DNA of 64,000 nucleotides, taken from the NCBI GenBank assembly GCA_965212005.1, contig OZ243038.1:1760096-1824095 (forward strand). Direction: 5' to 3'. Below, piece by piece: positions 51,601 to 64,000 of this stretch. This stretch comes from Candidatus Porifericomitaceae bacterium (GTDB lineage Bacteria > Pseudomonadota > Gammaproteobacteria > Porifericomitales > Porifericomitaceae). Under the pieces are notes generated by a model. It was given only the letters and a program-made list of their open reading frames with translations. It was not told the origin of the DNA and searched no databases. Positions within the stretch are counted from its first letter, which is position 1. Every line of letters begins with the position of its first letter. Made by a program: the position numbers and the translations under genes.

Positions 51601-52353
51601 GTGTTCCAGCGTTTCTATAAATACGTCTCGCTGCGGGAATTCTACGCGTTGTCCGGAAAGCTCGCGTCCTACTTCGCCTGGTTCGGTGCCTTGTTGTTGG
51701 CTGCTGGTCTGTACGGTGGTTTATTGTTGGCGCCACCGGACTATCAGCAGGGCGACGCTTTTCGCATCATTTACGTGCACGTTCCCAGCGCCTGGATGTC
51801 GCTGTTTGTGTACGTGACGATGGCGGCCGCGGGTGCAGTGAGCCTGATTTGGAAGGTTAAACTGACGGACGTGATCGCAAGAAGCAGTGCTCCCCTGGGG
51901 GCATCCTTTACTTTTTTGGCACTGTGTACGGGTTCCATCTGGGGCAAGCCGACGTGGGGGGCCTGGTGGGTATGGGACGCACGTTTAACCTCTGAATTGA
52001 TCCTTCTTTTTCTATACCTGGGCTATATGGCGCTGCAGTCGTCCATTGAAGACCGGCGCAGCGCGGCCCGGGCCGGCGCGGTACTGGCCCTGGTGGGAGT
52101 GGTCAACATTCCCATTATCCACTATTCGGTGGAATGGTGGAGCACCTTGCATCAGAAAGCCACGATCGCCAAGTTCGGTGCCCCTTCCATACACATCAGC
52201 ATGCTGGTACCCCTGCTGTTGATGGCTGGTGCCTTCATGTGCTACTATGCTTGGGTCACTTTGTTGCGCGCACGCAGCGAGATTTTGGCTTACGAGCGTA
52301 ACAGCGCATGGGTGCATGAATTGGTTGTGGCGCGTGGCGTGAGCATGGAATGA
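51601..52353 (+). CDS. ccmC: Heme exporter CcmC
   Basis: YVHVP, WGKPTWGAWWVWDARLTS, WWSTLHQ. Confidence 0.97.
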   Translation: MFQRFYKYVSLREFYALSGKLASYFAWFGALLLAAGLYGGLLLAPPDYQQGDAFRIIYVHVPSAWMSLFVYVTMAAAGAVSLIWKVKLTDVIARSSAPLGASFTFLALCTGSIWGKPTWGAWWVWDARLTSELILLFLYLGYMALQSSIEDRRSAARAGAVLALVGVVNIPIIHYSVEWWSTLHQKATIAKFGAPSIHISMLVPLLLMAGAFMCYYAWVTLLRARSEILAYERNSAWVHELVVARGVSME

Positions 52354-52517
52354 GTGCCCTGATCGAGTTTTTGCGCATGGGCGGTTATGGACCGTACGTT
52401 TGGTCGTGTTACGGGTTGACCGCGGTTGTCTTGTTATTGAATGTTTTGGTTCCGCTGTATCGTGAGCGGCGCTTTCTGCGCCTGTTAGCGATGGATCGGA
52501 ACCCGGAGCAGTCATAA
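52350..52517 (+). CDS. ccmD: Heme exporter protein CcmD (55 aa, absent from ORF track)
   Basis: MSALIEFLRMGGYGPYVWSCYG + TM + basic tail; ATG overlaps ccmC stop. Confidence 0.9.
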   Translation: MSALIEFLRMGGYGPYVWSCYGLTAVVLLLNVLVPLYRERRFLRLLAMDRNPEQS

Positions 52518-52518
52518 A

Positions 52519-52977
52519 ATGAGGATCCGGCGCAAACGCATGGTGGCTGTTTCCGGCATCCTGCTGGTAGCCGTCTCTGGCGTAACGCTGATGTTGATCG
52601 CCTTCGAAAAAAACCTGCTTTATTTTTACATCCCCAGCCAGGTGGTGGCGGGAGAGGCACCGTCGCAGCGTACTTTTCGCGTAGGTGGCCTGGTGCGCAA
52701 GGGCAGTGTCCGGCGCGACGCGCAGAGCTTGGTGGTCCATTTTGTATTGACGGATCATGGCCAGGATATGGCAGTCTCTTATGATGGCGTGTTGCCGGAC
52801 TTGTTTCGTGAAGAACAGGTGATAGTAGCCGACGGGCGCTTGCTTGCCGATGGGAGCTTTGAGGCGGTGCAGGTGCTGGCCAAGCACGACGAGAATTACA
52901 TGCCGCCCGAAGTGGCTGATGCCCTGGGCCTGAAGCCGAACGGCCCGATGCAAGTCCCGCTGCGGACGACGCAATAG
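52519..52977 (+). CDS. ccmE: Heme chaperone CcmE
   Basis: RVGGLV, LPDLFRE, VLAKHDENYMPPEV. Confidence 0.97.
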   Translation: MRIRRKRMVAVSGILLVAVSGVTLMLIAFEKNLLYFYIPSQVVAGEAPSQRTFRVGGLVRKGSVRRDAQSLVVHFVLTDHGQDMAVSYDGVLPDLFREEQVIVADGRLLADGSFEAVQVLAKHDENYMPPEVADALGLKPNGPMQVPLRTTQ

Positions 52978-52988
52978 GGGGCCGGGCC

Positions 52989-54977
52989 ATGATCGCGGAA
53001 CTGGGTCTGTTTGCCTTGGTGGCGGCCTTGGGGGTGGCCTTGGTGCAGGCGATATTGCCGTTTGTCGGAGCCGGTCTGAATGCCCGCCCCTGGATGGCGG
53101 TGGCGGTGCCCGCCGCCCGCCTGCAATTCCTGTTTTTGCTGCTGGCCTTTGGTGCCCTGACGTACTCGTTTGGCGTCAACGATTTCTCCCTGGTCTACGT
53201 GGCGGATAACTCGCACTCCGCCCTGCCGCTTGCCTATAGGTTCTGTGCGGTTTGGGGAGACCATGAAGGCTCTTTGCTGCTTTGGTCGCTGATCCTGGGG
53301 CTATGGACCTTTGCCGTGACCTTTTCCGGGCACCGTCTGCCAGAGCGCTTCCATGCCCGCATACTGGGCGTGTTGGGATTTATCAGCGTGGCTTTTCTGT
53401 TGTTCATGCTGTTCAGCTCGAACCCGTTTGAACGGCATTTGCCGGCGCCGATTGAAGGGGGGGATTTGAATCCGCTGTTACAGGACCCCGCCTTCGTCAT
53501 CCATCCGCCCATGTTGTATGCCGGCTACGTTGGCTTTGCAGTGGCGTTCGCGTTTGCCATTGCCGCCCTGCTGGAGCGAGACCTTGATCATCGCTGGTCG
53601 CGCTGGATGCGCCCCTGGGCCCTGGCCGCCTGGCTGTTTCTTACTCTTGGCATCGCGCTTGGCAGTTGGTGGGCATATTATGAACTGGGCTGGGGAGGCT
53701 GGTGGTTTTGGGACCCAGTGGAAAATGCCTCCTTTATGCCGTGGCTGTTGGGGACTGCCCTGATTCACTCCCAGGCTGCCACCGATCGGCGCAAGGCATT
53801 CGGCAGTTGGACCGTGCTGCTGGCGATTTGCGCTTTCACGTTGAGCCTGATCGGCACCTTCCTGGTGCGTTCCGGCATATTAACTTCGGTACACGCTTTT
53901 GCCTCCGATCCGGACCGCGGCATTTTCATTTTGGGCATACTCGCGGTGGTGGTCGGCAGTTCCCTGGCTTTGTTCGCCTGGCGAGGCCGGGATTTGCCGC
54001 ATGGTGCCGATTCTCAGCCGCTGTCCCGCGAGACCCTGTTGCTGATTAACTCCACACTGCTCGTGGTGATCACTGCGACCATTTTACTGGGCACACTATA
54101 TCCGCTGCTGGTCCAGGCCCTGGACCTGGGCAAACTGTCCGTGGGTGCCCCTTATTTCAATACCGTCTTTTTGCCGCTGATGGCGCTGTTGATCATTGCG
54201 ATGGGACTGGGTCCGCTGACGCGCTGGCAAAGCGACCGGGCCCGGCGTCTCTGGCGTGAAATGCGCTACGTCTTGTGGGGAAGTTTGCTGTTGGGCGTCT
54301 CCTGTGCGCTGATGCTCGGCACCGCCCGCTTTCTGCAGGCTGCGATCGGCATTGCCCTTGCGCTCTGGGTGGTGCTGGGAATAGCCACTGCACTTCGGGT
54401 CCGTTTGCGCGAGCGGGGTCTGCGTGAGTTGCGGCAAATCCCCAGCGGTTTCTGGGGCATGTGCCTGGCGCATATTGGCTTGGCAGTGACTGTATGCGGG
54501 ATCGTGGTCAGCGGCACCTACAGCACGTTGGCGCATGAGCGCATGGCACCTGGATCAAGCGCTGAATTGTCCGGCTATACTTTTCACATGGAAGACTTGA
54601 AGAAAATGGCAGGGCCGAACTACCAGGCCACCGATGCAGAGTTTCACGTGTCGCGCGGTGGGCAGGCGGTCGCGGTGCTGCATTCGCAAAAGCGCATCTA
54701 CCTGGTCAGGGACAACACGATGACCGAAGCCGGCATTGACGCGGGCCTGTTTCGGCATCTGTACGTTTCCCTGGGAGAGCCGCTGGGCGATGGCGAGTGG
54801 AGCGTAAGCCTGTACTATAAACCTCTGGTGAACTGGATTTGGCTGGGAGCATCGCTGATGGCGCTGGGCGGGCTGCTGTCCGCGGCGGATCCGCGTTACC
54901 GACGGGCCGCCCGCCGCTACACGCTTGATACCTGGTCCTTGTCTGCCGTTCGTGCCGCCCACCCAATTGGGCGCTGA
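52989..54977 (+). CDS. ccmF: Heme lyase CcmF
   Basis: HEGS, LNPLLQ, IHPPMLY, WAYYELGWGGWWFWDPVENAS, SVHAFA. Confidence 0.97.
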   Translation: MIAELGLFALVAALGVALVQAILPFVGAGLNARPWMAVAVPAARLQFLFLLLAFGALTYSFGVNDFSLVYVADNSHSALPLAYRFCAVWGDHEGSLLLWSLILGLWTFAVTFSGHRLPERFHARILGVLGFISVAFLLFMLFSSNPFERHLPAPIEGGDLNPLLQDPAFVIHPPMLYAGYVGFAVAFAFAIAALLERDLDHRWSRWMRPWALAAWLFLTLGIALGSWWAYYELGWGGWWFWDPVENASFMPWLLGTALIHSQAATDRRKAFGSWTVLLAICAFTLSLIGTFLVRSGILTSVHAFASDPDRGIFILGILAVVVGSSLALFAWRGRDLPHGADSQPLSRETLLLINSTLLVVITATILLGTLYPLLVQALDLGKLSVGAPYFNTVFLPLMALLIIAMGLGPLTRWQSDRARRLWREMRYVLWGSLLLGVSCALMLGTARFLQAAIGIALALWVVLGIATALRVRLRERGLRELRQIPSGFWGMCLAHIGLAVTVCGIVVSGTYSTLAHERMAPGSSAELSGYTFHMEDLKKMAGPNYQATDAEFHVSRGGQAVAVLHSQKRIYLVRDNTMTEAGIDAGLFRHLYVSLGEPLGDGEWSVSLYYKPLVNWIWLGASLMALGGLLSAADPRYRRAARRYTLDTWSLSAVRAAHPIGR

Positions 54978-55100
54978 CCAGGCGGAAACTTTGCTTCTCC
55001 ATGAATGATGAGCAAGGCGGAACACTCCCTGCTCTTTCTAAGAGTGCTGCCTCTGCTGCGTGCGCGGCGCGCCTCCGCGCCTGGATTTGCGGGTTAGCTG

Positions 55101-55640
55101 ATGGTGCGCTACGGATTACCGCTGGCCGCCTTCGTGCTGTTGCTGCTTTTATTCGGCATCGGGTTGCGCCTGGACGTGCGCAGCGTTCCTTCCCCGCTGA
55201 TCGGCAAGCCGTTGCCGGCGTTTACGCTGCCCCAGCTGCACAACCCGGAGCGCTTGGTGTACTCCGGCGAATGGGAAGGACAGGTGGTGTTGCTGAATGT
55301 ATGGGCTTCCTGGTGCGTGGCTTGCCGTGAGGAGCACCCGCTGCTGATCGAGTGGGCGCGGGACGCTGATTTTCCCTATCCTATCTACGGGCTGAACTAT
55401 AAGGATGACCGGCAGTTGGCGCTGCAGTGGCTGGCCCGCCTGGGTGATCCCTATCGGTACAGCGCCTACGATCCGGCTGGCAAGGCAGGCTTGGACCTGG
55501 GAGTGTACGGAGTGCCGGAAACTTACGTGCTGGACGCGACCGGTATCATCCGCTATAAGCACATTGGCCCGGTCACCCGGGCCGACTGGGAGCACAAGCT
55601 CCTGCCGCTGCTGACGAGCCTGGAGACACCGCCGGGATGA
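55101..55640 (+). CDS. ccmG: Thiol:disulfide interchange protein CcmG/DsbE
   Basis: PSPLIGK, NVWASWCVAC, NYKD, GVYGVPET. Confidence 0.95.
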   Translation: MVRYGLPLAAFVLLLLLFGIGLRLDVRSVPSPLIGKPLPAFTLPQLHNPERLVYSGEWEGQVVLLNVWASWCVACREEHPLLIEWARDADFPYPIYGLNYKDDRQLALQWLARLGDPYRYSAYDPAGKAGLDLGVYGVPETYVLDATGIIRYKHIGPVTRADWEHKLLPLLTSLETPPG

Positions 55641-56089
55641 GGGTGACGCTGCTCTTGCTGGTGGGATGGATGCTGGCCGGAGCACTGCCGGCCTGGCCTG
55701 CCGCGGACGTGCCGCTGGAATTCAGCAGCCTGGAGCAGGAACAGCGTTACTGGGATCTTTTACAGGAACTGCGCTGCATGGTGTGCCAGAACCAGTCCTT
55801 GGCCGACTCGCACGCCGATCTGGCGCAGGACATGCGCGATCAAGTGTATGGAATGATACAGAGTGATTACGATAATGAGCAGATCATCGGCTACCTGGTA
55901 AGCAGGTACGGTAATTTCGTACGCTACCGTCCTCCTTTCACTATCTCCACTTATGTGCTTTGGTTTGCTCCTTTGCTGATGGTGTTGGGCGCCGCCGTGT
56001 TCGTCACGCTGCTGGTGCGCCGCCGCTCCGGCAAGGCCGAAGGAGAGGCTGCCGGGCGGGAGCAGTCCACGGAACCGGGTGCCCTTTAG
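55637..56089 (+). CDS. ccmH: Cytochrome c biogenesis protein CcmH
   Basis: ELRCMVCQNQSLADS, RYGNFVRYRP. Confidence 0.95.
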   Translation: MRVTLLLLVGWMLAGALPAWPAADVPLEFSSLEQEQRYWDLLQELRCMVCQNQSLADSHADLAQDMRDQVYGMIQSDYDNEQIIGYLVSRYGNFVRYRPPFTISTYVLWFAPLLMVLGAAVFVTLLVRRRSGKAEGEAAGREQSTEPGAL

Positions 56090-57295
56090 ATGTTCTGGCT
56101 ATTGGCGGGCATGCTGCTGGGTGGCGCGGTTGTGCTCTTGTTCTATCAACTGCTGAGCACCCGCCCCGGGCAATTGCGCGTGCTGGGGGAACTGCGCATC
56201 TACCGGGAAAAGTTGGCCTGGCTGCACCGGGAACGGCAGCAGGGGCGTTTGCCTGATGAGCAGGAGGAGTCCTTGCGGCGCGACTTGGAGCGCACTCTAC
56301 TACAGGCCCTGGGCGAAGAAGCGATGGAGCCGCCGCGCGTGCGTTTACTGTGGCCCGCGCTGGGGCTCGTTGCGTTGCTGCCGTTGTTCGTCGTGGTCCT
56401 GTACATGGAGTTGGGCACCCCGCAACTCGCGCAGCTCCGGATGCAGGGGGAACCGCTTCCGGGTACCGCTGACCGCTCATCCGTTTCGCCGGATGAGCGC
56501 GTCAAACAGCTGGGTCTGTTCCTGCAGCAGCAGCCGGATCATGTCGATGCCTGGTTCGAGCTGGCGGAACTGCACATGGGGAGGGGGCAGTATTCGGAAG
56601 CGGCGCAGGCCGCAGAACGCCTGCATGCGTTGAGGAATGAAGATCCCAGGGCATTGCTGCTGTATGCCGACGCATTGGCCATGGCCCACGGAGGGCGTCT
56701 TCGGGGCCGTCCGGCCGAGTTGGTGGCGCAGGCTTTGGTGCTGGCACCGAACGATAAAGTCGCGCTGTGGTTGTCTGGCATGGCCGCCCGGGAGCAGGGG
56801 GACTCGGTAGCGGCGCTGCGCTATTGGCGCCAACTTGAGCCGGTACTGGAGGGGGAGGAATTGGATTCCCTGCAAGCGATGATCCAGGACGCCGCGGCGT
56901 CCTCCCAGGAGGAACCGGAAGCATCATTGCCGACTGCCGGGGAAGGTGCGGCCTTGCTACAGCTTGAAGTTTCGTTGCATGACTCCCTGCAGGAGCAGGT
57001 GCAGCCGGAGGATGCCGTCTATATATTCGCCCGTGCCCCTTCCGGGCCGCCGATGCCAGTAGCAGTGATGCGGAAACAGGTTCGAGATCTGCCGCTGCGC
57101 GTCACCCTGGACGATTCGATGGCAATCATGCCCACGCAGCGGCTCTCGGCTTTCGATCAGGTACAGGCAGGTGCTCGCATATCCTTCTCCGGCGATGCCC
57201 TGGCGCGCAGCGGTGACTTGCTGGCCACTCCGGTGAGCGCAACCGTGGGCGCGGTGGAGCCGGTTCAGCTCGTTATTGATCATGCACTGCCATAG
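56090..57295 (+). CDS. ccmI: Cytochrome c biogenesis protein CcmI/CycH (TPR)
   Basis: Two N-terminal TMs, TPR helices, VYIFARA..GPPMPVAV, LDDSMAIMP, ARIS.SGDA. Confidence 0.9.
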   Translation: MFWLLAGMLLGGAVVLLFYQLLSTRPGQLRVLGELRIYREKLAWLHRERQQGRLPDEQEESLRRDLERTLLQALGEEAMEPPRVRLLWPALGLVALLPLFVVVLYMELGTPQLAQLRMQGEPLPGTADRSSVSPDERVKQLGLFLQQQPDHVDAWFELAELHMGRGQYSEAAQAAERLHALRNEDPRALLLYADALAMAHGGRLRGRPAELVAQALVLAPNDKVALWLSGMAAREQGDSVAALRYWRQLEPVLEGEELDSLQAMIQDAAASSQEEPEASLPTAGEGAALLQLEVSLHDSLQEQVQPEDAVYIFARAPSGPPMPVAVMRKQVRDLPLRVTLDDSMAIMPTQRLSAFDQVQAGARISFSGDALARSGDLLATPVSATVGAVEPVQLVIDHALP

Positions 57296-57555: not shown

Positions 57556-58332
57556 TTAACGGGCCGTCCACCCACCGTCCACTTTAAGGCTGGCTCCCGT
57601 GATGAGTGCCGCAGCATCCGAGGCCAGAAAGACGACGGCGTTGGCAACGTCGTGAGGGTTGCCAATTTTACCCAATGGGATATTGGCGGTAATGAATCGC
57701 TTAAACGCTGCATCACTGAACATAGGCTCGGTCATCGGCGTTTCAATAAACGTTGGAGCGACGGAGTTCACTCGTATGGATTCTGCCGCGAATTCGATGG
57801 CCAGGGCCTTGGTTAACCCTTCCACTGCATGCTTGCTGGCGCAATATACGGTTCTATCAGGCGCCCCCACGTGTCCCATTTGCGAAGACAGGTTAATAAT
57901 ACTGCCACCGTTCCCTTGCTGCAGCATGATGCCTACGACTTTTTGGGTGATTTTGAATAACGTACTGACGTTGAGGTTCCATATTTTTTCCAGCGTCTCC
58001 GGTGACACTTCCAGGAAGGGCTGCGGAATATTCGTCCCCAGGTTGTTAACCAATACGTCCAGGGGTTTGAAGTTTTCAATTTCGCTCAGGAACCCTGTGC
58101 GGGAAGCGTCTGCCGGAAAGGGAGTTAGCAGGCTGCCGGCTTCCTTTTGCAGGGAAGCCAGGTCGCTCTCACTGCGGGCTACGGCAATTACTTCCGCGCC
58201 ACAGGCAACCAGTCCGAGGGAGCATTGACGGCCAATTCCCCTGGAAGCCCCGGTCACCAGGGCGCGTTTCCCCGTTAACAGATCAGCTTGAAAGGGATGC
58301 TTGTAAGTTTTTGTATTGACTGGAATTTTCAT
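57556..58332 (-). CDS. SDR oxidoreductase (resembles HpsO-type SDRs)
   Basis: TGASRGIG, basic AR after beta2 (NADP preference), SSQMGHVG, YCASK, VDGG. Confidence 0.88.
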   Translation of the reverse strand: MKIPVNTKTYKHPFQADLLTGKRALVTGASRGIGRQCSLGLVACGAEVIAVARSESDLASLQKEAGSLLTPFPADASRTGFLSEIENFKPLDVLVNNLGTNIPQPFLEVSPETLEKIWNLNVSTLFKITQKVVGIMLQQGNGGSIINLSSQMGHVGAPDRTVYCASKHAVEGLTKALAIEFAAESIRVNSVAPTFIETPMTEPMFSDAAFKRFITANIPLGKIGNPHDVANAVVFLASDAAALITGASLKVDGGWTAR

Positions 58333-58576
58333 AATGTACCGGCTTCAACCCTGGGTGCCCTGCGCGAAACAGGAGCCTCCACCGGTGGAGATTTTCGTCA
58401 TCTAAACTCAATGGTGGGAAACGACAATGCTTCGGCTGTTAAGGGAACGGGGGACGGTATTTGCGTCCGGGTGCCATTTTACTCTACCTTACCCGGGTGC
58501 AAAATAGTAAGTGCAGCCGGAACGTGAACGCTGTTTCGGTAATTTTCCGCTTGATTTTTCCACGGGAGAATCGGAC

Positions 58577-59857
58577 ATGATACGTAAACTAAAGGAGGGT
58601 GTCAGCTGTGAGCAGGCTGTTTCTGATGACACCAGGGTAAGGAAAACAGTGGAGTCCATCCTGGCGGATATTCAGATGAAAGGTGATGCCGCCGTTCGTG
58701 AATACGCTAAAAAATTCGACCACTGGGAAGGTGAGACCTTCCTCCTTTCTAAAACCGAAATCGATGCCTGCTACCAGCGCCTGGATGCGCAGGTGATTGC
58801 CGACGTTCAATTTGCGCAGGAGCAAGTGCGGAACTTTGCTCTTGTGCAAAAGGATGCTATCAGGGAAGTGGAGGTTGAGACGCTTCCGGGTGTCGTGTTG
58901 GGCCATAGGAACATCCCGGTGGACCGCGTTGGTTGCTATGTCCCGGGAGGCAAGTACCCGCTGGTGGCCTCGGCCCACATGAGCGTGGTGACTGCGAAGG
59001 TGGCAGGTGTAAAGGAAATTATCGCATGTGCGCCGCCATTCCACGGGGAGCCCAATCCCGCCATCGTTGCAGCCATGGACATGGGAGGCGCCGATGAAAT
59101 TTATTGCCTGGGTGGAGTGCAGGCAGTGGGTGCCATGGCGCTGGGAACAGAGTCGATAGCCCCGGTTGATATGCTGGTCGGCCCCGGGAACGCCTTCGTT
59201 GCTGAAGCAAAGAGACAATTATTTGGACGCGTCGGAATTGACCTTCTGGCGGGACCGACCGAAACTTTAATCATTGCCGATGAAACCGTGGATGGAGAGC
59301 TTTGTGCTACCGACCTGCTTGGGCAGGCGGAGCATGGGCCTACTTCTCCAGCGGTGTTGCTGACAAACTCCGAGAAATTGGCCCGGGATACCATGGACCA
59401 GGTTGAAGTCCAGCTAAAGAAATTGCCTACCGCTGAAATCGCCGGAAAGGCGTGGCGGGACTATGGACAAGTGATCGTCTGTGACAACTACGAGGAAATG
59501 CTGCAAACGGCCGATGATATTGCCTCCGAGCACGTCCAGGTGATGACTCGAGATCCGGACTACTTCCTGAACAACATGAAGAATTACGGTGCCCTGTTTC
59601 TTGGCCCGCAGACAAACGTTTCTTATGGCGACAAAGTGGTTGGAACCAATCACACGCTGCCTACCAGGAAAGCGGCGCGTTACACGGGTGGTTTGTGGGT
59701 GGGAAAGTTCATCAAAACCTGCACCTACCAGCGCCTGACTGAGTCAGCCTCGCGGTACATCGGCGAGTATTGTTCCAGGCTTTGTGCCCTGGAAGGTTTC
59801 ATGGGCCACAAGGCCCAGGCGGATATCCGGGTGCAGCGCTATAGTGAAGGGAAATAG
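58577..59857 (+). CDS. Histidinol dehydrogenase paralogue (HisD/HpsN-like 4-electron alcohol dehydrogenase)
   Basis: [42 protein letters not shown] (GDK where HisD has GDY); no his genes adjacent. Confidence 0.85.
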
Positions 59858-60265
59858 CCGCGTTTGAGGTCGATGTCCGTTCGATGGTTGTGGGCAGTGA
59901 GGTGTTTTCACCAGGCTGATACATGTTTCGGTGAGGGTTGCGAGTCGGGAGAGCGCCGGCTTGGTTGCCGCTCTTTTGTCAGCACTGGAAAAGCAGATGT
60001 TTGCTGCTCGGCCAGTACGGCATAGTGGGGAAACAGCCGTAACACCATTCACATGTAAGGATAAAAGTTGCCGGGGCAGCAGGTGACCGCGACTGGGGAC
60101 GCCGGCAGGCTGACCGGGAAGCCAATGAAAGGCGGTTATCCGGCAGCCGGTGCGTGGCCGGTACCGGCGACGTGCAGCGTATAGGGCGGATTTTGACGCT
60201 CCGGCGCAAAAGGGGCGATTGATCGGTAAATTGTGTTTGAGCCGCTTCCTGGAAAAGTTCCAACG

Positions 60266-60979
60266 ATGTCTTTCAACCCATTGCCCTTGATATTATTGCC
60301 GGGTGCCTTGTGTGACGAGACCTTGTTTCAGCCCCAAGTGGCGCATTTCAGTGCTGATCGACCGGTATTGGTGGGTGACTTTAGTGATTGCGATTCGATA
60401 CAGAAAATGGCGAAAAAAATACTACGCGCCGCACCGGACACCTTTGCCCTTGCCGGTTTGTCAATGGGAGGCATTGTCGCTTTTGAGATCATGCGTTGCG
60501 CATCAGAAAGAGTGGAGCGCCTGGCGTTACTGGATACCAATCCCCGTGCCGAGTCGTCGGATCGAAAGTTGATGAGAGCGGAACAGATGCAGACAGTTGA
60601 AGCGGGCGGCGTGGAAGCACTGCTGTACCTGGTTGAATCTTTCTATTTTCCCCGCTACGTGTCCCCGGCAAGACTGGACGATGAATCATTGAAGGGCGTT
60701 GTCATGGCAATGGCGAGAAAAGGCGGTTTGAAAGCGTTTTTCGAGCAATGGCAGGCATTGCTGGGCAGGCCGGACAGTGGCCATATCCTCCCGCGAATTC
60801 AATGCCCGACGCTGGTCCTGTGTGGCGAGCATGATGCAATGTGCGCCCCGGAGGTCCATCGTGCGATGGCGCAAGAGATTCCTGACTCGAGCCTGCAGAT
60901 TGTTCCCGGCAGCGGACACCTGAGCACCCTGGAGGCTCCGGGAGAGGTGAATGCCTTACTGGAAGGCTGGCTGAACTGA
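60266..60979 (+). CDS. Alpha/beta fold hydrolase
   Basis: LPGALCD, GLSMGG nucleophile elbow, CGEHD, SGHLSTLE. Confidence 0.9.
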   Translation: MSFNPLPLILLPGALCDETLFQPQVAHFSADRPVLVGDFSDCDSIQKMAKKILRAAPDTFALAGLSMGGIVAFEIMRCASERVERLALLDTNPRAESSDRKLMRAEQMQTVEAGGVEALLYLVESFYFPRYVSPARLDDESLKGVVMAMARKGGLKAFFEQWQALLGRPDSGHILPRIQCPTLVLCGEHDAMCAPEVHRAMAQEIPDSSLQIVPGSGHLSTLEAPGEVNALLEGWLN

Positions 60980-61761
60980 TGGCGAAATCAGATCCGCATA
61001 ATGATTTTCGCCGGCGCCTGCTTGAGGGCGAGTTGCTGGTCGGAACTTTTGTGAAATCGCCTTCAATGGTGGTGGCGGAGGTTCTGGCGCAAACAGAGCT
61101 GGACGTCCTTTGTTTTGATACGGAGCATGCACCGTTTGATCGCAGGGATACGGACGCCACGTTGCTGGCGTGCAGGCACGCAGCCAAGCCTGCGCTGGTG
61201 CGCGTGCCCTCGAGCGCGCCCGAACACACCCTGAATGCCTTGGATTGTGGCGCCACGGGTATTGTTGTACCCCACGTGAGCAGCGTGGAAAGCGCCCGGT
61301 CGTGCGTGGCGAATGCTCGTTACGCAAGCGCGGGTAGAAGTTATGCGGGCTCTCCACGGGCGGCTGGATACGGCGCTAACAGCATCGCCCAAAACGTACA
61401 AAGCAATAAAAGAGATACGACGGTTATTACTCAAATTGAAGACCTTGACGCCTTGGATTGCATAAGTGAGATCGCCGGGGTGAAAGGCATCGACTGCTTC
61501 TTCATCGGCATGATGGACTTGACGCTTGCGTTGAATGCGAACAGTGCGCAGGACTCATCCGTCATTGAGGCGGCTGAAGGTATTTGCGATGCCGTGCGAT
61601 CTGCCGGTGGCAGGCTGGGAATATTTATTCCCCTGGTTCAGGATCTTCCTTTCTGGCTGGACCGGGGGGTTACCTTGTTTCTACTGGCTTCCGATCACGT
61701 GTTTATCAAGCAGGGAGCCGCGCAACTGGTTCACGACGTCCGGGAACATTTTCCCCGGTGA
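60979..61761 (+). CDS. HpcH/HpaI class II pyruvate aldolase family protein
   Basis: FDTEHAP, LVRV, LDCGATGIVVPHV, QIED, FIGMMDL; coupled to hydrolase by TGATG overlap. Confidence 0.88.
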   Translation: MAKSDPHNDFRRRLLEGELLVGTFVKSPSMVVAEVLAQTELDVLCFDTEHAPFDRRDTDATLLACRHAAKPALVRVPSSAPEHTLNALDCGATGIVVPHVSSVESARSCVANARYASAGRSYAGSPRAAGYGANSIAQNVQSNKRDTTVITQIEDLDALDCISEIAGVKGIDCFFIGMMDLTLALNANSAQDSSVIEAAEGICDAVRSAGGRLGIFIPLVQDLPFWLDRGVTLFLLASDHVFIKQGAAQLVHDVREHFPR

Positions 61762-62142
61762 CGCCGTGCAGGCTAGAGTTTTCGATCTGCCCGGGGATCG
61801 GAATTGATCCTTCCCGCCCGCAACGATTGGACTGATACAGGTTGCCTTTTCCTTTCAGGGGCAGTTGGCGGTTGGCGGGGCTTCGTTACAGCTTCGGACC
61901 CGGCGTTGCCGGATTGATAATGGAATATGAGTCCGCGTGGGGTGCGCGCAACGGAAGGTGTGACGGTTCAATGAGCCTGCGGCGGGTCATGGATGCGTGC
62001 ATGGGCAAGGGACTGCCGGAGACCAGGCGATTCATCGTGCATGAGACGGCAGAGCTACGCCGGATACAAAGAGACCTGCCGGGGCAGGCCAAGGCGGCCT
62101 GTTACGCTGCGTGCTGAGCGCCGCAACTGCAGCGATCGGATT

Positions 62143-63270
62143 TCAACCGGCTAATACCGCGCCCTGGGCCAGTGCTTCCAGCTTGGCATAAGTGATCTCA
62201 ACGTCCACTGCGCCAAAGCCGGCGAAGGTTCCAAAGCCGCAATCCGATCCGGCGACGACCCTTTCCCTGCCTACGATGTCAGTAAACCGGCGAATGCGCT
62301 GGGCAACCAACTCCGGATGCTCCACGAAGTTGGTGGTGCTGTCGATCACGCCGGGAACCAGCACCTTATCATCGGGGATCGCGTTTTTGCGCTCACGAAA
62401 AACGATCCATTCGTGAGCATGGCGGGGGTTGGAAGTCTCGAACAGAAGATAGCGCGCCTTAATGCTCATGAGGGTGTTAAACACCTTGCTCATGGGGATG
62501 TCGCAAATGTGCGGTCCCTCGTAGTTGCCCCAGCAGATATGCACCCGAACGCGCCCGGGATTAATGCCTCGCAGGGCATCATTCAGTACCTCCACGTGGC
62601 TGTCTGCAATTTTGACGAATTCCTCGTCAGACAGGTCATTAAACAGCATGTGCCGTGACAGTGCCAAATCGGGGCAATCCAACTGCAGCAGCAGGCCGGA
62701 ATCGACTATGGCCTCATACTCCGGCTTCATGGCTTCCCCCAGCGCCGCCAGGTAATTTTCACGACTGGCGTAGTGCCGGTTTGGCAGAAACAGGGCAATA
62801 ACACCCGGCGAAGCCGCGTTCATAAAGCCTTCCGCGGCACCGTGTTTGTGCATCGCCGATTTGAGATTATCGATATCAGCGTGCAGGTCGTTGTAGTTTT
62901 TTGCCTTGACCTCACCGGTGCAAAACGGTCTTGCGTATTGCGGGGTGCCCCCGCTGGCGGCGATGCGCTGTAGAAAGGCAGGGAATAATTGCAAGTCCCT
63001 GGGAGGGTTTCGGGGACTGTCACCGCTGAAGCCGTGGTAGCGGTCTTTAACGTAGGTGGCGTAGGATATTTTTGACGTCTCGCCGTCGGAAACAACGTCA
63101 ATCCCGGCCTTGACCTGCCTCGCCACCGTGGCATCCACGTTCTTCGCCATGACGGTGGAAAACACGGCCTGATCGCAGGGGCTCCCCTTATCGCGGGCGA
63201 AAATACAGTCAACTACCTCCTGGCTGCGCGGCAGGGAGCCGACGTGAGTGGTTAAAATACGGTCAGGCAC
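62143..63270 (-). CDS. Cobalamin-independent methionine synthase II family (single-barrel MetE-like Zn enzyme)
   Basis: TTHVGSLPR, SDGE, LQLDCP, HICWGNY, FE, PGVID, VEHPELVA, SDCGFG. Confidence 0.88.
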   Translation of the reverse strand: MPDRILTTHVGSLPRSQEVVDCIFARDKGSPCDQAVFSTVMAKNVDATVARQVKAGIDVVSDGETSKISYATYVKDRYHGFSGDSPRNPPRDLQLFPAFLQRIAASGGTPQYARPFCTGEVKAKNYNDLHADIDNLKSAMHKHGAAEGFMNAASPGVIALFLPNRHYASRENYLAALGEAMKPEYEAIVDSGLLLQLDCPDLALSRHMLFNDLSDEEFVKIADSHVEVLNDALRGINPGRVRVHICWGNYEGPHICDIPMSKVFNTLMSIKARYLLFETSNPRHAHEWIVFRERKNAIPDDKVLVPGVIDSTTNFVEHPELVAQRIRRFTDIVGRERVVAGSDCGFGTFAGFGAVDVEITYAKLEALAQGAVLAG

Positions 63271-64000
63271 CGGTACTTACCGCTTCGGATTGCGCGGCCC
63301 GAAGCCGGGCCCGGTAGACTTGGGTGAACACCGATAATTCATCAAACAGGGTCCACTCTTCCTGGATTTTTCCATGTTCAACGAGGTAATGGCTTGCTCC
63401 GAGGATGAATATTTCGGCACCCGTGGGAGGACCGTACAACGCAGCGCCCTGGTGCTTGCCTGACAGCGTCCAACGCACTGCCAGGTCGATTTTCTGCCCA
63501 GGCTTGCTGACGCCGTGGCTCGGCTGACAGCACACGTGATCCACTGAGAACCTGAGCGTGGACAGGGTCCCCAAAAGCTGTAGATAAAACTCGGCAATTT
63601 CCCGCTGCCCCTTCAATATTCTCCCGGCCGGAGCGCATAAGCGGGCATTTTCGGCATAGTTTTGATAGACGTCGCCCAGCATTCGGGCGTTCCAGATGTT
63701 TTGCAGCACGCTGCGAATGAACGACTCGGGCTCTTCCTGCGCACCAGCGCTGAATTCGATGCGCCTCCGGTCAATTTTGGAGAGGCGTTCGAGTTCACTG
63801 TTTTGCCAGTTGACAAGGCGTTCGGTGGGGGCGCTCTGCGCCTGTTTCCTGGCTACCGCGTGAGGATCCAAACCCAGTTGTTTGACCAGGGAAAGGTTGT
63901 CGCGTACCAGCCATTCCTCAACAACTTTATTGGCCTTAACAATGCAATGGGCGATAGTGTAGATGGCGGCGTGCCTGTTCGTGGCGCCGCCAAAGCCACT
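63263..64000 (-). CDS. SnoaL-like ester cyclase family protein (two domains), 5'-truncated by window edge
   Basis: Frame open to 64000: VVEEWLVRDN...QLG then AVRWTLSGKHQG..LYGPPTG, KIQEEWTLFDE. Confidence 0.82.
   Translation of the reverse strand, partial: SGFGGATNRHAAIYTIAHCIVKANKVVEEWLVRDNLSLVKQLGLDPHAVARKQAQSAPTERLVNWQNSELERLSKIDRRRIEFSAGAQEEPESFIRSVLQNIWNARMLGDVYQNYAENARLCAPAGRILKGQREIAEFYLQLLGTLSTLRFSVDHVCCQPSHGVSKPGQKIDLAVRWTLSGKHQGAALYGPPTGAEIFILGASHYLVEHGKIQEEWTLFDELSVFTQVYRARLRAAQSEAVSTGA

Follow-up and report, generated by a model that had tools for sequence, protein, structure and literature searches.

A variant HisD/HpsN-family dehydrogenase in a putative catabolic island of a Porifericomitaceae bacterium and in related loci of marine bacteria

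Genes and borders of the island

The stretch of DNA analysed in this study (the window) comprises 64,000 nucleotides of Candidatus Porifericomitaceae bacterium (contig OZ243038.1, positions 1,760,096 to 1,824,095). At its right end it contains the left third of an island of about 17 kb and 12 genes, which includes a gene for a HisD-fold, Zn- and NAD+-dependent dehydrogenase. This enzyme and its closest homologues are called clade X in the following. It is a variant enzyme of the HisD/HpsN family inside a pathway without published description: no publication on the cluster, on the gene combination or on other substrates of HisD-like enzymes was found in the literature searched, the closest being the papers on HpsN and on cysteinolate, and the first-pass annotation had rightly called the catabolic cluster undescribed. 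The remainder of the island extends approximately 10.5 kb beyond the window end, as had been anticipated, and positions there are given as window-equivalent coordinates taken from the same genome's contig.

The island starts at window position 57556 with the gene for a short-chain dehydrogenase/reductase (SDR) of 258 aa on the minus strand (57556-58332; PF13561, 189 bits). It is divergent from the clade-X gene (58577-59857, plus strand; PF00815, 480 bits), and the 244 bp between the two (58333-58576) presumably hold the promoters. Since homologues align from the ATG at 58577, which gives a protein of 426 aa, this start is likelier than the GTG at 58511 of an earlier open reading frame (ORF; 58511-59857). 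A non-coding gap of 376 bp (59858-60232) follows at the position that a LacI gene occupies in relatives. Further on the plus strand are encoded an alpha/beta-fold hydrolase of 248 aa starting from GTG (60233-60979; Abhydrolase_6/_1), for which an alternative ATG start 11 codons in is possible, and an HpcH/HpaI-family class II pyruvate aldolase of 260 aa (60979-61761; PF03328, 80 bits), whose start shares 1 nt with the hydrolase stop, i.e. both genes are translationally coupled. On the minus strand, the gene for a single-domain MetE-like Zn enzyme of 375 aa (62143-63270; PF01717) shares 8 nt with that for a double SnoaL/NTF2-fold protein of 369 aa in full (63263-64372), which leaves the window at 64000. 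These six genes had been described at these positions before, and Pfam and NCBIfam searches confirmed their families.

Beyond the window end the island continues with genes for a bicupin (64390-65433), a TonB-dependent receptor (66140-68566), a sulfatase of 756 aa (68921-71191; L003:14017-16287; PF00884, 195 bits), a second double-SnoaL protein (71188-72204), a Na+/solute symporter of the SSF family (72267-73874) and a single-domain SnoaL protein (73923-74462). The mechanical ORF of the bicupin (L003:9486-11096, window-equivalent 64390-66000) would encode 536 aa, whereas homologues are near 335 aa long and their alignment to it begins only at residue 199. Met190 (L003:10529) is the probable start, and the long N-terminal extension is probably untranslated. 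The sulfatase, whose gene is flanked by those for the TonB receptor and a SnoaL protein, has an arylsulfatase and a choline-sulfatase as nearest matches, both far below cut-off. As it was found in none of 70 related loci, it is peculiar to the window's genome, and the substrate may be used by this organism in a sulfated form.

The island is bordered by ccmI on one side, where ccmC, E, F, G, H and I-like ORFs form a complete cytochrome c maturation row (window 51601-57295), and by a kef/secG/tpiA block on the other, comprising a Kef-type exchanger, secG, tpiA, a pseudouridine synthase gene, scpB, scpA and a class-I (Trp/Tyr-type) tRNA synthetase gene. The GC content of the island (55.6%) is below that of the ccm flank (60.6%) and of the genome (59.0%); it corresponds to the 17th percentile of same-size windows (standard deviation 3.95 points). 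The earlier description of this DNA as AT-rich is weak, as the GC content is lower than in the flank but no outlier. No tRNA was found at the island borders. The sister genomes G002 and G003 retain ccmH-ccmI, and neither the island nor the kef/secG/tpiA flank is present within 10 kb. A clade-X gene occurs in one of the four species genomes of the window's order, that of the window alone. Since only this genome carries the gene and the sisters lack the downstream flank, a lineage-specific gain is likely, although a clean insertion site cannot be claimed.

An inspection of the adjacent DNA for a transporter and a regulator, as proposed by the first-pass annotation, revealed the TonB receptor and the symporter; the LacI regulator of related clusters has no homologue anywhere in the 2.54-Mb genome (tblastn, E<1e-5). 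The same type of search found neither the Amidohydro_2 nor the RraA partner of related loci in this genome. The window's copy is a trimmed, regulator-less version of the cluster.

The dehydrogenase in comparison with HisD and HpsN

Two PF00815 genes are present in the window's genome. The second one lies in a murA-hisG-hisD-hisC row and is the canonical hisD, to whose product the clade-X protein is 35% identical. The clade-X protein scores 466 bits with TIGR00069 against a cut-off of 243.8 bits, and close homologues are named 'histidinol dehydrogenase' by NCBI, which would agree with a second, redundant histidinol dehydrogenase. HpsN-type proteins also pass this cut-off, so the model cannot separate HisD from HpsN functions. 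Among solved structures, the HpsN proteins of Cupriavidus pinatubonensis (CpHpsN, 8v35) and Ruegeria pomeroyi (RpHpsN, 8wwe) match with 414 and 395 bits, respectively, HisD structures with 202-280 bits. Clade X shares with HisD the family PF00815 and the same metal and catalytic residues, but the identity is 30-35%, GDK and QxEHG (QAEHG in the window's protein) stand in place of the GDY and QxEHD of the HisD-type pocket with its G-S-A-P-L-like loop, and a his-operon context is missing. Together with the separate canonical hisD, the grouping with HpsN in the tree described below, the catabolic and transport genes that accompany clade X in five phyla and the inactivity of CpHpsN on histidinol, this makes a redundant HisD barely credible.

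HpsN, an (R)-dihydroxypropanesulfonate (DHPS) 3-dehydrogenase, oxidises both DHPS and sulfolactaldehyde, as reported in PMC11382572, from which the inactivity of CpHpsN on histidinol is also taken. There, His126 at the end of the G-R-Y-A/S-H motif is named as the residue that sets HpsN apart from HisD; it is a Zn ligand in the free enzyme and hydrogen-bonds the sulfonate together with Lys353 in the product complex. The ligands of the octahedral Zn site are Gln248, His251, Asp352 and His411*, and Glu318/His319 form the catalytic pair.

Aligned to CpHpsN, the paralogue in the window keeps all Zn ligands, Glu318/His319 and Asp352-Lys353, and the sole change among these residues is His126 to Leu (G-K-Y-P-L). 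Its motifs read G-K-Y-P-L...A-S-A-H and GDK-V-V, compared with G-R-Y-A/S-H...A-S-A-(Y/I) and GDK-(T/C/A)-S in HpsN. A 12-residue peptide quoted earlier from the paralogue is indeed present, as is GDK, and the HpsN motif that had been given for comparison, G-R-Y-(A/S)-H, matches the published one. In clade X the pocket positions 126 and 355 turn hydrophobic (Leu/Met for His126, Val/Ile for Ser after GDK-x) and an extra His stands five residues on, while Lys353 and an Arg/Lys at the position of HpsN Arg123 are retained.

Because the catalytic and Zn-binding residues are all kept, an NAD+-dependent oxidation typical of the family is expected. The clade-X enzyme should be catalytically competent and should convert a terminal -CH(OH or NH2)-CH2OH group, or the matching aldehyde, into the carboxylate. 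With HpsN it has in common the HisD fold, the Gln/His/Asp/His Zn site, the Glu-His pair and GDK, and most likely also the reaction, a four-electron, NAD+-dependent oxidation that turns an alcohol into an acid. However, with the loss of His126 it fails the feature defining sulfonate recognition, and the identity to HpsN is 45-50% compared with 59-81% inside clade X. The earlier statement that the paralogue is neither hisD nor a canonical HpsN therefore stands: a separate hisD exists, and the protein is HpsN-like with Leu in place of His126.

All 120 homologues listed for the paralogue were 75-81% identical over the full length, except its own protein and one longer fusion (68%). From species genomes, 70 loci were fetched, labelled as Gamma- and Alphaproteobacteria (including SAR116 and a metagenome-assembled genome (MAG) of Pelagibacteraceae), Chloroflexota, Bacillota and Bacteroidota. 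Clade X recurs in 68 loci from five phyla, so that 'orphan', as the cluster had been called, does not apply. P-(M/L) at the His126 position combined with a His five residues on (A-S-A/S-H) was found in 66 of 68 readable loci, the exceptions being L060 and L064 (G-R-F-T-H...A-S-A-Q), and GDK in all 69 readable loci. The pattern G-R/K-Y/F-P-M/L was rejected as a stand-alone marker of the clade: ordinary HisD sequences with GDY and QxEHD often show it too, and hence only the combined signature is diagnostic, namely QxEHG and GDK, as in HpsN-type proteins, with P-(M/L) and His at +5.

A maximum-likelihood tree was calculated from 90 sequences and 416 columns (76 full-length representatives of 150 listed and 16 window or locus sequences, P0150 and P0219 being left out as aberrant rows). 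It separates a GDK/EHG superclade from HisD (support 0.93), inside which clade X is grouped with a support of 0.996. The His126-type sequences of L060 and L064 nest within clade X, which suggests that the His position switched back and forth with the substrate. Both genes (L060:8645-9928 and L064:10001-11278, on Anaerolineae-labelled MAG contigs) adjoin a split pair of thiamine diphosphate (ThDP) enzyme genes of the sulfopyruvate decarboxylase (ComDE) kind, and an AsnC regulator is found in these flanks.

Among 400 sampled genomes of the window's class, the dehydrogenase matches fell into two separate identity bands. The first band comprises 11 genomes (10 and the window's own) with 64-80% identity and at least 601 bits. 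The second comprises at least 11 genomes with 48-50% identity and 404-433 bits, this count being a floor because the matches lie near the E cut-off set. Both types occur together in G067, G356 and the SAR116 genome G005. In these three genomes the 48-50% copies carry G-R-Y-A/S-H and sit in a DHPS or sulfolactate context: an HpsO-like SDR, an HpsP-like Zn-dependent alcohol dehydrogenase and a SuyB-like gene in G005, a SuyB-like gene and an HpsO-like SDR in G067, and ComD and ComE above cut-off with an FMN lactate-dehydrogenase-like gene in G356. As a negative control, the MetE-like, bicupin, SnoaL, LacI and aldolase partners of clade X were found in none of five HpsN-type contexts. Two paralogues per genome, each in its own conserved context, point to different substrates.

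The typical genes of sulfonate degradation were also searched for. In the window's genome (98% complete) there is no Xsc over cut-off (best 313 bits against 676), no SuyB-type PF04295 match and no CuyA-type protein (best 21 bits against 289), and none of hpsO/hpsP, SuyAB, Xsc with ComDE, or CuyA is among the annotated neighbour clusters of the clade-X loci, in which the setting differs from that of HpsN. The 313-bit match of the Xsc model is a ThDP enzyme of 584 aa at window 33778-35391 (G000:C1:1793873-1795486); most likely it is of the acetolactate synthase type and not a sulfoacetaldehyde acetyltransferase.

These results bear on an organosulfonate pathway, in which clade X would be an HpsN isoenzyme for a sulfonate that is a poor substrate of canonical HpsN, e.g. 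S-DHPS or D-cysteinolate. In this case the sulfonate would be bound by the relocated His from a different angle, and a novel route of desulfonation would be formed by the MetE-like, SnoaL and bicupin proteins. HpsN is the nearest characterised relative of clade X, Lys353 and the R/K-Y pair are retained, the His five residues past the lost His126 is present in nearly all loci, and L060 and L064, with their ComDE-like neighbours, nest inside the clade. A racemase of the CuyB family in three loci and the sulfatase in the window's own island could be read in the same way, the latter with the reservation that it is missing from the 70 other loci. Published work states that canonical HpsN takes only R-DHPS and L-cysteinolate, and that D-cysteinolate as well as both enantiomers of DHPS occur in abundance in the sea; in the cysteinolate study, the HpsN used had identical substrate-binding residues. 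Nevertheless, we consider an organosulfonate unlikely, given the missing Xsc, SuyB and CuyA in the window's genome, the hydrophobic pocket positions, and transporters and a regulator that are of the sugar type and not TRAP/HpsK. Likewise, no sulfite exporter or sulfite dehydrogenase is among the annotated recurrent neighbour clusters, and a SAR11 'HpsN' homologue, which may belong to clade X, has a Km of 106 mM for R-DHPS (PMC11131964). A marine organosulfur compound, which had been suggested as substrate, is thus disfavoured by the loss of the sulfonate-binding His, by the missing Xsc, SuyB and CuyA and by a separate true HpsN in three genomes. We infer that the substrate is neither DHPS nor histidinol.

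Conserved partners and the putative pathway

The ORFs of the 70 loci and of the window's locus were clustered de novo, the clusters were annotated, and partners were counted on the 68 clade-X loci; flanks are complete to 10 kb in 42 of them (second number in each of the following brackets). A LacI-family regulator is the most frequent partner (41/68; 26/42), followed by the SDR of the same de novo cluster (37/68; 23/42), the bicupin (33/68; 28/42), the MetE-like protein (32/68; 25/42), at least one SnoaL gene of two main clusters (28/68; 22/42) and an HpcH or RraA-like aldolase (27/68; 21/42). The alpha/beta hydrolase (17/68; 13/42), an Amidohydro_2 protein, which is nearest to L-fucono-1,5-lactonase although far below cut-off (17/68; 14/42), the SSF symporter (17/68; 15/42) and the TonB receptor (16/68; 14/42) are less common. 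Three or more of the five core partners (SDR, MetE-like protein, bicupin, SnoaL, aldolase) are present in 29/68 loci and in 23/42 with full flanks. The genes therefore do co-occur in other genomes, and, as described above, the paralogue is not the sole hisD of its own; neither of the two outcomes named in the first-pass annotation as refuting its reading holds.

HpcH is found in 21/68 loci overall. It is the aldolase of 15/23 Gamma-type loci, whereas RraA occurs in 6/9 Alpha loci, and this non-orthologous replacement argues for a retro-aldol step as an integral part of the pathway. Many Chloroflexota loci have just a small cupin-related gene, the MetE-like gene and the dehydrogenase, and Bacillota loci have the dehydrogenase, LacI and an anion permease of the CitMHS/GntP type, sometimes with an SDR and a dehydrogenase of the 3HCDH family. 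Such partial sets in many loci indicate that the set is modular and may serve related, not identical substrates. A 3HCDH-family dehydrogenase was observed near the clade-X gene in seven loci: L063, L069 and L073 (Geomicrobium, Bacillaceae JMAK1), L036-L039 (Fictibacillus) and L006 (Arenicella). In the Geomicrobium/JMAK1 loci, a beta-keto-acid cleavage enzyme (BKACE), a thioesterase (4HBT), ATP-binding cassette (ABC) transporters of the betaine and MetQ types and a regulator similar to CudC are encoded close by as well, and all of these together resemble a carnitine/choline-style module. In five gammaproteobacterial loci (L010-L012, L015, L016), a conserved protein of about 481 aa without Pfam or NCBIfam match is encoded in or beside the cluster (e.g. 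L010:17942-19387).

For the SDR, the best NCBIfam match is glucose 1-dehydrogenase with 204.5 bits, compared with a cut-off of 215. Nearest among solved structures are carbonyl reductase, L-xylulose reductase and 2-deoxy-D-gluconate 3-dehydrogenase (KduD-type), while HpsO reaches 125 bits and is only at rank 44 among the best 60 matches, so the view of this SDR as an HpsO-like enzyme that adjusts stereochemistry was not borne out. The hydrolase has a G-L-S-M-G nucleophile elbow; its NCBIfam matches are of the PcaD type (3-oxoadipate enol-lactonase) and weak (80-96 bits, far below the cut-offs), and the best solved match is the esterase 4uhc with 80 bits. The aldolase scores 83-126 bits with the models for GarL, HpaI and rhamnonate aldolase against cut-offs of 369-441 (GarL 126 against 407), and its nearest solved structures are 2-dehydro-3-deoxy-galactarate and -glucarate aldolases and YfaU, all with 62-90 bits.

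The MetE-like protein aligns to residues 427-731 of E. coli MetE (hhalign, 95.5% probability), and the H-x-C, E-T-S and D-C-G motifs as well as G-S, G-E and Q-x-D are found at corresponding positions; we take these to be the Zn ligands and homocysteine contacts of MetE. In the family the mean column identity is 67% (n=18), and H244, C246, E278 and C344 are invariant. The structure model (pLDDT 90) is nearest to Shewanella 3rpd and to the C-terminal domain of T. maritima MetE, with template-modelling (TM) scores of 0.73-0.79. All MetE models of NCBIfam score far below cut-off (best 82 bits against 406). With 3rpd, the single-domain 'core MetE' of Shewanella sp. W3-18-1, the protein shares the fold (TM 0.73 query- and 0.79 target-normalised) and the motifs, but the identity is 19-21% and the gene here stands in a catabolic cluster and not in methionine biosynthesis. 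MetE consists of two barrels, of which the N-terminal one helps to bind methyltetrahydrofolate polyglutamate; this barrel is missing from the MetE-like protein with its single domain. Since the Zn and homocysteine motifs are kept, the enzyme likely uses a Zn-activated homocysteine-type thiol.

A substrate that would suit such an enzyme is a methylated onium osmolyte, i.e. a sulfonium or quaternary-ammonium hydroxy compound from phytoplankton, which the MetE-like protein would demethylate onto homocysteine to give methionine, while the HisD-type enzyme and the SDR would oxidise the chain. Betaine- and thetin-homocysteine methyltransferases carry out a comparable demethylation, and onium compounds are the usual non-folate methyl donors. 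The complete Zn-thiolate and homocysteine motifs without the folate-side N-terminal domain fit this idea, as do the tight linkage of the MetE-like gene to clade X in SAR11, SAR116 and Chloroflexota and the Bacillota neighbours mentioned above (betaine- and MetQ-type ABC transporters, CudC-like regulator, carnitine-type genes for 3HCDH, BKACE and thioesterase). However, the MetE-like gene is missing from 36/68 loci, among them all 12 Bacillota loci with betaine-type neighbours, and the regulator and transporters are otherwise of the sugar type. In addition, PMC11382572 leads us to expect that Zn in the active site is coordinated by the amine of histidinol or the sulfonate of DHPS in a way that is not open to a quaternary N or S. 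An onium compound is improbable to the same degree as an organosulfonate.

The bicupin model (pLDDT 92) has an invariant H-x-H-x3-E and F-R-G-F in the N-terminal barrel. Neither this protein nor the MetE-like one had a match in sequence searches of solved structures, and the look-alikes of both in the Atlas were generic 'cupin' and 'methionine synthase II' clusters only. In the full ORF of the double-SnoaL protein (L003:8359-9468), PF07366 is found in two stretches, and only weak matches to SnoL/hydroxylase structures were obtained. A metal-binding bicupin could also be a dioxygenase of a meta-cleavage-like ring-cleavage pathway for a methoxylated aromatic or heterocycle, in which the MetE-like enzyme would be an O-demethylase, the Amidohydro_2 protein a lactonase, hydratase or decarboxylase and the alpha/beta hydrolase a C-C hydrolase, followed by the HpcH/RraA aldolase. 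HpcH/RraA aldolases, Amidohydro_2 proteins and alpha/beta hydrolases are the standard lower set of the homoprotocatechuate and protocatechuate-4,5 routes, which the enzyme set here resembles. Quercetin dioxygenases are among the nearest folds of the bicupin, and 3-oxoadipate enol-lactonases are the best NCBIfam matches of the hydrolase. But the fold matches of the bicupin are generic (TM about 0.5, 11-18% identity), LacI, CUT1 and SSF are atypical for aromatics, no ring-hydroxylating or electron-transfer genes are among the annotated neighbours, and a HisD-type enzyme requires an alcohol that is aliphatic and carries a 2-hydroxy or 2-amino group. Ring cleavage is thus very unlikely, more so than a sulfonate or an onium compound.

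Regulation and uptake, judged from family membership, are of the sugar type. Besides the LacI regulator, the substrate-binding protein (SBP) of SAR11 and SAR116 clusters belongs to the CUT1 sugar-type family, its best solved matches being assorted sugar binders with E values of about 1e-13 or worse, and the SSF symporter is YidK-like. The carbohydrate flavour extends to the fuconolactonase-like lactonase (the Amidohydro_2 protein of relatives), the sugar-type SDR and aldolase and the CitMHS/GntP permease of Bacillota. The glucose/galactose binder SAR11_0769 (PMC11485210) was tried as an identity for the SBP of the SAR11 cluster and rejected, as this SBP gives just 29.9 bits to 8HQQ; because the two proteins differ, that work provides no ligand for the cluster.

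In oxidative routes for sugars and sugar acids, an SDR and a lactonase lead to a 2-keto-3-deoxy acid, which an HpcH-type aldolase cleaves to pyruvate and a C3 aldehyde, and the latter is oxidised to the acid. By analogy, we favour a reading of the island as an oxidative, non-phosphorylative pathway that converts a small polar non-sulfonate compound, sugar-, polyol- or hydroxy-acid-like and possibly methylated, to pyruvate and a second fragment, which we regard as an even call. The compound would be imported by the TonB-dependent receptor and the Na+/solute symporter. The alpha/beta hydrolase, or the Amidohydro_2 lactonase of relatives, would open a lactone or ester, and the SDR would oxidise a secondary alcohol to the ketone. 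The SnoaL-fold and bicupin proteins might then carry out a ketone-assisted isomerisation or dehydration in place of the classical sugar-acid dehydratases, after which the HpcH (or RraA) aldolase would free pyruvate. The HisD-type enzyme would act, in parallel to HpsN, either on a terminal alcohol with a 2-hydroxy (or 2-amino) group or on the aldehyde that the aldolase sets free, and would oxidise it to the carboxylate. The MetE-like enzyme, which is optional across taxa, might be a methyl- or alkyltransferase between the substrate and a thiol of the homocysteine type and thus serve methylated or thioether variants. In outline, the order of oxidation, epimerisation, hydrolysis and retro-aldol cleavage put forward in the first-pass annotation is plausible. 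Candidates for the substrate can only be guessed; carboxylate, ether and methyl analogues of DHPS, which would suit the altered pocket, come to mind, e.g. 3,4-dihydroxybutanoate (to malate) and lactaldehyde/1,2-propanediol (to lactate), and 3-O-methylglyceraldehyde derived from O-methyl sugars would be a further guess.

The sulfo-Entner-Doudoroff route for sulfoquinovose, the diketo-hydrolase or aldolase routes for L-fucose/L-rhamnose and the uronate/aldarate routes resemble the cluster in their enzyme logic and in the sugar-like regulator and transporters. They differ in that the cluster is without an enolase-superfamily, IlvD/Edd or UxaA-type dehydratase or a kinase, and in that proteins foreign to those routes are encoded here, namely a MetE-like enzyme, a bicupin and as many as six proteins with SnoaL domains. 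Several points weigh against the sugar-like pathway. No recognisable sugar-acid dehydratase, kinase or glycosidase is among the annotated genes of the cluster, and since no known dehydratase is present, the dehydration is given to the SnoaL and cupin proteins by analogy only. Every family assignment finer than superfamily scores below the curated cut-off, and the bicupin model matches generic bicupins only. The partial sets, found mainly in Chloroflexota and Bacillota, may mean that one pathway is in fact several related ones. Three loci hold a racemase of PF01177, the family that also includes CuyB, a racemase of cysteate, and this hints at amino-acid-type intermediates, and in some Bacillota the betaine/carnitine-type genes and MetQ-type transporters near the gene fit a methylated onium compound better than a sugar. 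Finally, the nesting of the His126-type L060 and L064, with their ComDE-like neighbours, together with Lys353 and the Arg/Lys, means that the substrate of clade X may be anionic, even sulfonate-like.

Clade X in SAR11 and the marine hpsN signal

In the family of the Pelagibacteraceae MAG (SAR11), a protein with 60-61% identity is present in 32 of 71 genomes, and none of these 71 genomes gave a match in the HpsN band. The four SAR11 loci inspected all have the same compact order: SDR, dehydrogenase and SnoaL; bicupin, double SnoaL, RraA and MetE-like protein; three SnoaL genes; and a CUT1 ABC transporter. The dehydrogenase motif there is A-G-K-F-P-M-V-A-S-A-H-M. In marine metagenomes, 7,998 of 8,000 scored candidates matched the SAR11 protein at E<=1e-150, many of them from Tara. 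Such proteins are labelled 'sulfopropanediol 3-dehydrogenase' by JGI and 'histidinol dehydrogenase' by NCBI. In the Pelagibacteraceae MAG itself (L074, G004:C1:263609-264632), the clade-X gene is split in three, showing frame breaks as well as a single TAG in frame, next to intact-looking bicupin, SnoaL, RraA and MetE-like genes; this is either a pseudogene or an assembly error.

Biochemical data exist for one SAR11 'HpsN' homologue. In Table 1 of PMC11131964, the Km of 106 mM for R-DHPS is set against 1.07 mM for RpHpsN, with a comparable weak activity on histidinol. As clade X is the only type present in the HpsN-like range of SAR11 genomes, the assayed protein, 'CuHpsN' (PU1002_02401), may well be clade X; a match named HTCC1002 did not appear among the metagenome and database matches. 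According to a preprint on a North Sea bloom, 'hpsN' expression came from a gammaproteobacterial MAG of the HTCC2207 clade, and HTCC2207-like lineages carry clade X among the fetched loci, e.g. the Porticoccaceae MAG at L015. The CpHpsN study (PMC11382572) retained only 272 of 1000 homologues, those with hpsO/hpsP neighbours, and for this reason clade X went unexamined there. The SAR11 'unknome' paper makes no mention of SnoaL, cupin, histidinol, methionine synthase, NTF2 or ester cyclase.

HpsN is used as a marker gene for bacterial utilisation of DHPS, which is a main organosulfur currency between phytoplankton and bacteria. Clade X is labelled as sulfopropanediol 3-dehydrogenase or histidinol dehydrogenase and fails the structural test for either, and it is found in nearly half of the SAR11-family genomes examined, without an HpsN-type protein, and is very abundant in ocean metagenomes; hence, hpsN may be counted too high in the sea, and the part inferred for SAR11 in DHPS turnover may be too large. 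The combination of P-(M/L) and His at +5, as opposed to (A/S/T)-His, is a simple sequence rule that splits clade X from true HpsN. That a cluster of 10-14 kb is kept in SAR11 genomes of 1.2-1.4 Mb points to an important substrate. Tentatively, and with less than even confidence, we think of a pathway that is abundant worldwide and has escaped notice, by which SAR11, SAR116, Gammaproteobacteria of the sea and sponge-type Chloroflexota would degrade a major metabolite derived from phytoplankton. Its chemistry would be new: a MetE-like enzyme independent of folate would pass a methyl or alkyl group of the substrate to homocysteine, SnoaL-fold dehydratases or isomerases would stand in for classical sugar-acid dehydratases, and the HisD-type four-electron dehydrogenase would have a remodelled pocket. 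If this is true, a sizeable share of the 'hpsN' signal in ocean meta-omics data, above all that of SAR11, would belong to the clade-X pathway.

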